Below, in pieces: positions 30,398 through 32,150 of a stretch of 32,150 nucleotides of DNA. Position 1 is the stretch's first letter. Each line of letters begins with the position of its first letter. Both the position numbers and the translations under genes were made by a program. Source of the stretch: Candidatus Eiseniibacteriota bacterium (GTDB lineage: Bacteria; Eisenbacteria; RBG-16-71-46; SZUA-252); contig JANOOP010000193.1 of the NCBI GenBank assembly GCA_031421415.1, positions 1 to 32,150 on the forward strand, written 5' to 3'. The notes under the pieces are model-generated. The model was given only the letters and a program-made list of their open reading frames with translations. It was not told where the DNA came from and did no database searches.

Positions 30398-32150
30398 TCA
30401 CGAACACCCGCTCGTGGTACCGCAGTTGAGACAGGCATAGCAGGCGCCCCGGCGGACCATGATCGATCCGCAGTCGGAGCAGGGAGGCGCATCGGTCTCG
30501 GAGACGAAGGCTCGGTCCTCCTCGGCCCTCGTCTTGGCGCCGCCGTTTCCGCCGTTCGCGCCGCCCCCGCCGTTGATGAGCGAGAGCTGCGTGTCGGCGA
30601 CCGGCTTCACGCCGCCCGCTTCGAAGATGTCGTCCTTCGCGGCCTCGTGCGAGGCCGACGCGGGGTGGTGGCCCAGGAACTTGATGCCGAGCCACCGGAA
30701 GATGTAGTCGACGATCGACTTCGCGATCGGAATGTCGCTGTTCTTCGTGAAGCCGTGCGGCTCGAACCGGACGTGGGCGAACTTGCTCACGAAGAGCTCC
30801 AGCGAAACCCCGTGCTGCAGCCCCAGCGAGACCGCCGTGGCGAAGGAGTCCATGACGCCCGATAGGGTCGAACCCGCCTTGGCCATCACGATGAAGATCT
30901 CGCCCGGCGTTCCGTCCTCGTACATCCCGACGGTCAGGTATCCGTCGTGGCTCCCCACCGAGAACTTGTGCGTGATCGACTTCCGCTCGTCCGGCAGCCG
31001 CCGGCGCTTCGGGACGGCCGGCGCCTGAACGACCTGAAGCGTCGGCCTCTGCGCACCCTTGTCGTCCTTGCTGGTCGAGAGCGGCTGGCTCCGCTTGGAG
31101 CCGTCGCGGTAGACCGCCACCGCCTTCAGTCCGCCCTTCCACGATTCCAGATAGGCGTGGGCAATGTCTTGTGGCGTGGCGTCCTCCGGCATGTTCACCG
31201 TCTTCGAGATGGCGCCGGAGATGAACGGCTGCACCGCCTCCATCATGCGGATGTGGCCGAGGTAGTGGATCGACCTCCTGCCGTTCCGCGGCTTGAAGGC
31301 GCAATCAAATACGGGGAGGTGCTCGTCCTTGAGCCCCGGTGCTCCTTCGATCGTCTCGTGCTCGTCGATGTAGCGCACGATCCGATTCACCGCTTCCTCC
31401 CCGTAGCCGAGACGACGCAGCGCCTCGGGCACCGTGTTGTTCACGATCTTGAGCATCCCGCCGCCCGAGAGCTTCTTGTACTTCACGAGCGCGATGTCGG
31501 GCTCGATGCCGGTCGTGTCGCAATCCATCATGAACGCGATCGTTCCGGTGGGGGCGATGACCGTCACCTGGGCGTTGCGGTAGCCGTGCTCGACACCGAG
31601 CGCCTCGCACTCGTTCCAGGTGGCGCGGGCGGCGTCCAGGATCTCGGTCGGGACGTGCGTGGCGTCGATCTTCTCGATGGCGGCGTGATGCTTGCGAATG
31701 ACCCGGAGCATCGGTTCGCGATTCTTCTCATAGCCGGCGAACGGCCCCTTGGCCGCGGCGATCCGGGCACTGGTGGCGTTGGCGTGGCCATGCATGAGCG
31801 CCGTCAGGGCTCCCGCCACCGAGCGGCCGGCGTCGCTGTCGTAGGGGATGCCCCACGACATGAGCAGCGCGCCGAGGTTGGCGTAGCCAAGGCCGAGCGG
31901 CCGGAAGTCGTGCGAATTCTTCTCGATCGTCGGGGTCGGATAGGAGGCGTTGTCGACCACGATTTCCTGCGCGGCGATGAGCGTGCCGCAGACGTGCTTG
32001 TAGGCGGCCGTGTCGAAGACGCCGTCCGCCCGGACGAACTTCATGAGATTGACCGAGGCGAGATTGCACGCCGAGTCGTCCAGGAACATGTATTCGGAGC
32101 AGTTGTGAACCACCAATCCATTCGCCACGAAGTGGTTGGTGACGGGCTCG
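30398..32150 (-). CDS. nrdJ: Class II (adenosylcobalamin-dependent) ribonucleotide reductase NrdJ, 3' part (5' end lies outside the window). C-extein is 30398..32101, preceded by an intein C-terminus
   Basis: [54 protein letters not shown] and a C-terminal Cys-rich tail [27 protein letters not shown]. The reading frame stays open to the window edge ([20 protein letters not shown]). Confidence 0.9.
   Translation of the reverse strand, partial: [583 protein letters not shown]
32102..32150 (-). mobile_element. C-terminal 16 residues of an intein inserted in nrdJ (rest lies outside the window)
   Basis: Minus-strand translation [16 protein letters not shown] followed by Cys (TGC 32101-32099). 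This matches the intein C-terminal splicing block: NF/HF-V-A-N, a hydrophobic run, HN, then a +1 Cys. Confidence 0.7.

Follow-up and report, generated by a model that had tools for sequence, protein, structure and literature searches.

A contig that very probably ends within a LAGLIDADG intein at the predicted radical cysteine of the ribonucleotide reductase NrdJ

A reading frame for the ribonucleotide reductase (RNR) NrdJ runs off the right end of the window, i.e., the whole stretch of DNA analyzed here, which is the entire 32,150-nt contig C193 of a metagenome-assembled genome (MAG; bin G000, 420 contigs, 2.5 Mb, 68% GC). On the minus strand, a 567-aa C-terminal part of NrdJ starts at a Cys codon (TGC, 32101..32099) and stays in frame to a stop at 30400..30398, and the contig breaks 49 nt upstream of this Cys codon, leaving room for 16 preceding residues (codons 32149..32102) and one base of the codon before them. 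What are these residues, and why does the contig stop among them? The earlier note had read them as the last 16 residues of an intein inserted in nrdJ directly before the Cys of the catalytic motif, which the insertion would split and whose Cys would serve as the +1 nucleophile. Both the count and the reading are borne out by our analysis, and the right end of the window very probably lies within a canonical class-1 intein of ~371 aa, with a LAGLIDADG endonuclease, inserted in-frame in nrdJ between Pro and Cys of the N-P-C-S-E motif. Five features of the locus are used throughout:

32102..32150, minus strand: last 16 codons of the probable intein (end of block F plus block G) and one base of the preceding codon; from TIGR01443, identity to locus L004, and no homology to contig C299.

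32099..32101, minus strand: +1 Cys codon (TGC), first C-extein residue of N-P-C-S-E; from alignment to 1xje and 7b9p.

31109..32101, minus strand: C-extein, second half of the RNR ten-stranded barrel; from Pfam Ribonuc_red_lgC, profile positions 212-523.

30689..30964, minus strand: TSCPD domain of the NrdJ C-terminal region; from PF12637, 43.1 bits, residues 396-487 of the 583-aa fragment.

30398..30688, minus strand: NrdJ C-terminus, with a Gly/Asn linker, a Cys-rich tail (CSDCG...CYACLNCG), and the stop at 30398-30400; from translation.

The host gene is predicted from its domain content to encode a class II (B12-dependent, adenosylcobalamin) ribonucleotide reductase. The window fragment scored 277 bits against the RNR barrel (PF02867), while the class II N-terminal domain (PF08471) was found on contig C299 of the same bin. 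The partial protein reached 836 bits against NF005122, which, for want of the N-extein, falls short of the full-length cut-off of 859, and NF006207, the NCBIfam model of intein-containing NrdJ, aligned through the same intein/C-extein junction. The architecture of the C-terminus was the same as in P0001-P0003, and the Gly/Asn-rich linker and CxxC...CxxCxxC tail that follow the TSCPD domain (window 30398-30600, minus strand) are intact and of the kind usual in long class II RNRs. An Rfam scan of both strands of window 1-32150 and of C299:1756-4380 gave no family at or above its gathering score, and likewise no cobalamin riboswitch upstream of nrdJ on C299.

Which residue follows the junction was read from an ungapped alignment to the Thermotoga maritima NrdJ (1xje), which places N-P-C-S-E on residues 320-324 and the +1 Cys on C322 of N320-x-C322-x-E324. 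T. maritima C322 (E. coli C439) is the thiyl-radical cysteine, a role reportedly described for C322 by Larsson and colleagues in 2004. By this alignment, the +1 Cys is predicted both to act as nucleophile in splicing and to form the thiyl radical in NrdJ, with the catalytic motif split by the insertion as had been proposed. An intein site directly N-terminal to the thiyl-radical active site is also what Dassa et al. 2009 (PMC2677866) describe.

The visible tail ends in ...GLVVHN/C (the slash marking the splice junction), i.e., a penultimate His, a terminal Asn, and a +1 Cys, as in intein block G. Residues 4-17 of the window frame scored 16.4 bits (E = 0.0082) with the NCBIfam model of the intein C-terminal region (TIGR01443), narrowly passing its curated cut-off of 15.6. 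The 49 nt upstream of the Cys codon matched, at 49/49 positions, the 3' end of an intein that is complete (1113 nt) in L004, a locus from a different sample. Along with the break in homology to C299 described below, the L004 identity and the TIGR01443 pass confirm that the tail pattern is beyond chance. The remainder of the intein was sought across the bin by blastn and tblastn, which returned nothing beyond the 49-nt tail; tblastn hits on C258 and C313 (E = 0.085 and 0.7, respectively) were considered as intein pieces and dismissed as noise. Within the tail, an in-frame GTG at 32128 opens a 576-aa open reading frame (ORF; window 30398-32128, minus strand). This GTG-start ORF is an artifact of the contig end, which matters for annotation: a gene caller would start from the spurious GTG inside the intein and report a truncated, N-terminally short 576-aa NrdJ as complete.

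The nature of the sequence before the junction is most directly seen in contig C299, which carries the 5' part of an intein-free nrdJ, uninterrupted across NP-CSEY and ending 192 nt past the Cys codon. When the two contigs were anchored at the Cys codon, 180/192 positions downstream were identical (93.75%), as were 18/49 positions upstream, the latter being chance level. Homology to colinear NrdJ thus ends exactly at the P/C boundary because the C299 match stops at the Cys codon, and the outcome that the earlier note had set against its own reading, a frame continuing upstream as colinear NrdJ, is not what these contigs display. A spliced product composed of the C299 N-extein and the window C-extein, with N-P-C-S-E restored, was colinear both with NrdJ proteins that have no intein and with 7b9p, a solved NrdJ, also through ...ACNLAS, and the N-extein ends in INASNP in both C299 and L004, i.e., in the N-P anticipated beforehand.

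The co-occurrence of an interrupted and an uninterrupted nrdJ in one bin also bears on why the contig stops where it does. Comparing the bin to itself yielded 81 matches between contigs that were 120 nt or longer; 62 of these lie at a terminus of each contig involved, with identities of 88-98%. These end-to-end overlaps span 120-820 nt, and C299:4189-4380 versus window 31910-32101 is among them. Two closely related, ~94%-identical populations are therefore combined in the bin, with C193 representing the occupied and C299 the empty allele. This mixture explains why contig C193 ends 49 nt inside the intein, and intein presence/absence is one point at which the assembly graph forked. The possibility of two paralogous nrdJ genes in a single genome was considered and rejected: related genomes, one of them a single-contig 3.1-Mb assembly, have only one nrdJ, so that two alleles at 94% fit two populations and not paralogues, and the bin holds 62 similar end overlaps. 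More generally, contig-level findings in this bin may mix alleles of two strains or species.

Full-length relatives provided the parts of the intein that lie beyond the contig end. Most homologues of the spliced product were ~930-950 aa long, and 11 of 1283-1328 aa included Pfam intein-splicing and LAGLIDADG domains. The closest of these intein-bearing proteins, P0003 (97% identical), reads ...INASNP/CVTGDTLV... and carries a 371-aa intein with terminal HN, inserted exactly at N-P/C and displaying Cys1, a block B TADH, and two LAGLIDADG motifs, with PF14890 (Intein_splicing) and PF14528 (LAGLIDADG_3, 67.6 bits) nested inside Ribonuc_red_lgC. The earlier note had called for a search for precisely these elements (Cys1, the TxxH of block B, and a homing endonuclease), and all were recovered in the insert of the nearest relative. 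The DNA encoding P0003 (L004) was 96.8% identical to the window over 2053 nt; its match to C299 (98.1%) held up to NP/C and then resumed precisely 1113 nt later, and its intein scored 40.6 bits against the model of the intein N-terminal region (TIGR01445). In the strain of the window, the N-terminal 355 intein residues would be intact by extrapolation from relatives at no more than 97% identity.

These features recur across the family. Among 13 allelic inteins of close relatives (370-373 aa), 155 positions were invariant; Cys1, the block B T(A/G)DH, and the terminal HN followed by Cys were kept in 13/13; and block F had the common form EPV(F/Y)DL.E..T.HF(V/A)ANG. The two LAGLIDADG motifs (...GVAVGDGC... 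and ...LRGLF(S/T)(A/S/T)DGTV...) were kept in 12/13 alleles, P0044 being the exception: in this intein (alignment residues ~224-230), the Asp of the second motif is replaced by Gly (FTAGGTV), and GDGC has become GDGW. The endonuclease of the P0044 lineage is probably inactive, as expected late in a homing cycle. When the N- and C-terminal parts of the P0003 intein were searched against the PDB, they matched the DnaB (4o1r, E = 4e-11), PI-MtuI RecA, and Mxe GyrA inteins. Because both halves of the splicing domain match these solved inteins, a shared Hint fold and shared chemistry are to be expected. Resemblance to solved inteins in this domain, one hallmark of the class, is thus seen in the relative, to which the window adds the last 16 residues; another, an in-frame insert that colinear orthologues lack, is seen in the uninterrupted nrdJ of C299 and of 27 species genomes.

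By analogy with these inteins, we propose the following course of events. The precursor would be translated as a single chain of ~1,300 aa. Cys1 of the intein would undergo an N-S acyl shift, and the resulting thioester would be attacked by the +1 Cys, i.e., the future thiyl-radical Cys (trans-thioesterification). The terminal Asn would then cyclize with help from the penultimate His, releasing the intein, and an S-N shift would restore the peptide bond to give an uninterrupted NrdJ of ~930-950 aa; under this scheme, NrdJ would have to be spliced before it could be active. As for the DNA, empty NP/C alleles are the expected targets of the embedded endonuclease, and repair of the cut would copy the intein in (homing). 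Splicing chemistry, endonuclease activity, and homing are all carried over from characterized inteins in this scheme.

The scheme presumes a functional element, and the tail could conversely be the remnant of a decayed, non-splicing intein, or the gene a pseudogene, with functional NrdJ supplied by the intein-free C299 copy. The presence of that second allele in the bin, the absence of the N-terminal 355 intein residues from the assembly, and the decay of the endonuclease motif in one relative (P0044) all point in this direction. Such decay would nevertheless sit poorly with a visible tail in which no C-terminal splicing residue has been lost and whose nucleotides are 100% identical to those of an intact relative, and with a 567-aa C-extein whose frame is uninterrupted and which shares 97-98% identity with orthologues that look functional. 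Since relatives have a single nrdJ, and the 62 contig-pair overlaps fit two populations, the C299 copy is also accounted for differently. We therefore regard decay as very unlikely and retain an intact intein in one of two populations as the preferred reading.

We then evaluated how the intein is distributed, starting from the order to which the window belongs, which is represented by 41 species genomes from a single family with four genera. The nrdJ site was assembled in 30 of these, counting the bin itself: 27/30 were empty, 2/30 were occupied, and the bin presented both states. The occupied genomes were G017, of the same genus (intein 90% identical), and G039, of another genus (75%). Occupancy in the order is sporadic, and the DNA flanking the insertion site is highly conserved; sporadic presence at one fixed, conserved target is the pattern associated with LAGLIDADG elements. 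Beyond the order, one genome from each prokaryotic species was scanned with the alignment of inteins as query, which confirmed this allele, at this insertion point, in 178 loci from many phyla. Among the best 80 of these 178 loci, bacterial hosts were found in Eisenbacteria, Acidobacteriota, Methylomirabilota, Nitrospirota, Planctomycetota, Myxococcota, Vulcanimicrobiota, Alphaproteobacteria, and CPR bacteria, along with DPANN archaea; cultured strains in this same set were Roseiarcus fermentans DSM 24875 and Aquisphaera insulae JC669. A simple pattern recovered the junctions (S/T)NP/CVTG...VHN/CSE(Y/F) in 72/80 of these best loci, with inteins of 354-375 aa.

Inter-domain occurrences deserve separate mention. 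DPANN MAGs assigned to Micrarchaeota, Aenigmatarchaeota, and Woesearchaeota (L084, L091, L097, L111) contain the same NrdJ intein at 51-55% identity, and the same allele, again 51-55% identical and with the same junctions, occurs in the CPR Uhrbacteria L085 and L092. These sequences suggest that the intein, or an nrdJ carrying it, may have spread between domains. In bacteria, RNRs rank second among intein hosts, one survey having counted 211 such inteins (PMC4760082), and the site considered here is the most frequent one for contiguous inteins in class I/II RNRs (PMC2677866).

The same surveys weigh on two further explanations of the window end. The bin is highly fragmented and strain-mixed, and the feature occupies the last 49 nt of a contig, i.e., the setting in which a chimeric end could have joined unrelated sequence to nrdJ; yet HN/CSEY with the same intein tail recurs in the independent assemblies L004, G017, G039, and 72 other genomes, and a random misjoin would not recreate a family-specific motif in frame, which makes an assembly artifact of this kind extremely improbable. 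To the same extremely small degree, we would credit a split intein in a fractured gene, whereby a separate gene for the C-terminal part of NrdJ starts with a short C-intein and the N-terminal part with its N-intein is encoded elsewhere, as at the metagenomic NrdJ-1 and NrdA loci. Known NrdJ split inteins sit one residue further C-terminal, with a different +1 residue, and contiguous inteins occupy the site considered here in 72/80 distant loci and in 13/13 close alleles, among them L004, whose contiguous 371-aa intein shares the 49 nt of the tail. Split inteins have been described in NrdJ and NrdA (PMC2677866), the window shows the last 16 residues alone, and the in-frame GTG at 32128 could pass for a gene start; a start there, however, leaves 9 intein residues, too few for a C-intein. 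A contiguous intein, cut by the contig end, accordingly remains the reading that we carry forward.

The availability of occupied and empty alleles also allowed a comparison of the codon that follows the +1 Cys. For Ser(+2) (window 32096-32098; C299:4192-4194; compared across L004-L036), the codon is TCN in 4/4 occupied alleles and AGC in 14/26 empty alleles, C299 included. A little further downstream, C299:4204-4209 reads TTT TTG versus TTC CTG at window 32081-32086. The Ser(+2) difference was considered as a sign of endonuclease target preference or immunity and set aside as unsupported, with too few independent occupied alleles.

Whether the intein is more than a selfish passenger is a question of a different kind. 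Because the radical-forming Cys serves as +1 nucleophile next to Cys1, it is conceivable that splicing is redox-conditional, e.g., through a Cys1-Cys+1 disulfide, and would thereby control when the sole RNR observed in these genomes matures; in a related option, the empty AGC-codon allele of C299 would be resistant to cleavage. Both ideas are improbable in our judgment. If true, a cleavage-resistant empty allele would capture, in nature, one moment of the homing cycle as it runs between two populations that occur together.

Overall, the element is a routine member of the best-known and commonest RNR intein site, already known and widespread in public genomes, and its recovery here leaves current understanding unchallenged. 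Its significance is more local. The Candidatus Eisenbacteria-like lineage is one more host of a pan-phylum intein allele, and the contig breaks at a point where two co-assembled, ~94%-identical populations differ in having or lacking the intein. For assembly quality, there is a risk that C193 and C299 are joined in error or are taken for two separate RNR genes. Having occupied and empty alleles in one sample also provides a convenient natural pair for tests of homing-endonuclease specificity.

A literature search combining class II ribonucleotide reductase, intein, and LAGLIDADG returned no match. Known systems are compared individually. The DnaB mini-inteins (4o1r and 1mi8), PI-MtuI RecA, and Mxe GyrA are the best PDB matches, including at the C-terminal ...FDLT.P...FVAN..(I/V)VHN, although they reside in other host proteins and at other sites, and the crystallized DnaB and RecA forms are without an endonuclease domain. 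The intein of the Aquifex aeolicus RNR R2 subunit (NrdB) is also an RNR-hosted LAGLIDADG element and splices efficiently in a heterologous host (PMC8772380); it interrupts the small, radical-generating subunit, unlike the NrdJ intein at the catalytic Cys of the large subunit, and it was reported to improve iron loading (PMC8772380), a benefit of which there is no indication for the NrdJ intein. The NrdJ-1 and NrdJ-2 split inteins (PMC2677866) likewise have a class II NrdJ host, the same active-site loop, and a link to homing endonucleases, but they splice in trans, are associated with a free-standing endonuclease gene, and are inserted after the Cys, whereas the present family is contiguous with an internal LAGLIDADG domain. 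From the contiguous inteins of class I/II RNR large subunits, which intein registries list as RIR1 alleles, no substantive difference was seen, the present copy being a partly assembled one in an uncultured Candidatus Eisenbacteria-like MAG: the two share the host family, the exact insertion point N-terminal to the radical Cys, the +1 Cys nucleophile, the HN motif, the Cys1 and TxxH motifs and embedded LAGLIDADG endonuclease that relatives predict for the present copy, and the sporadic distribution.
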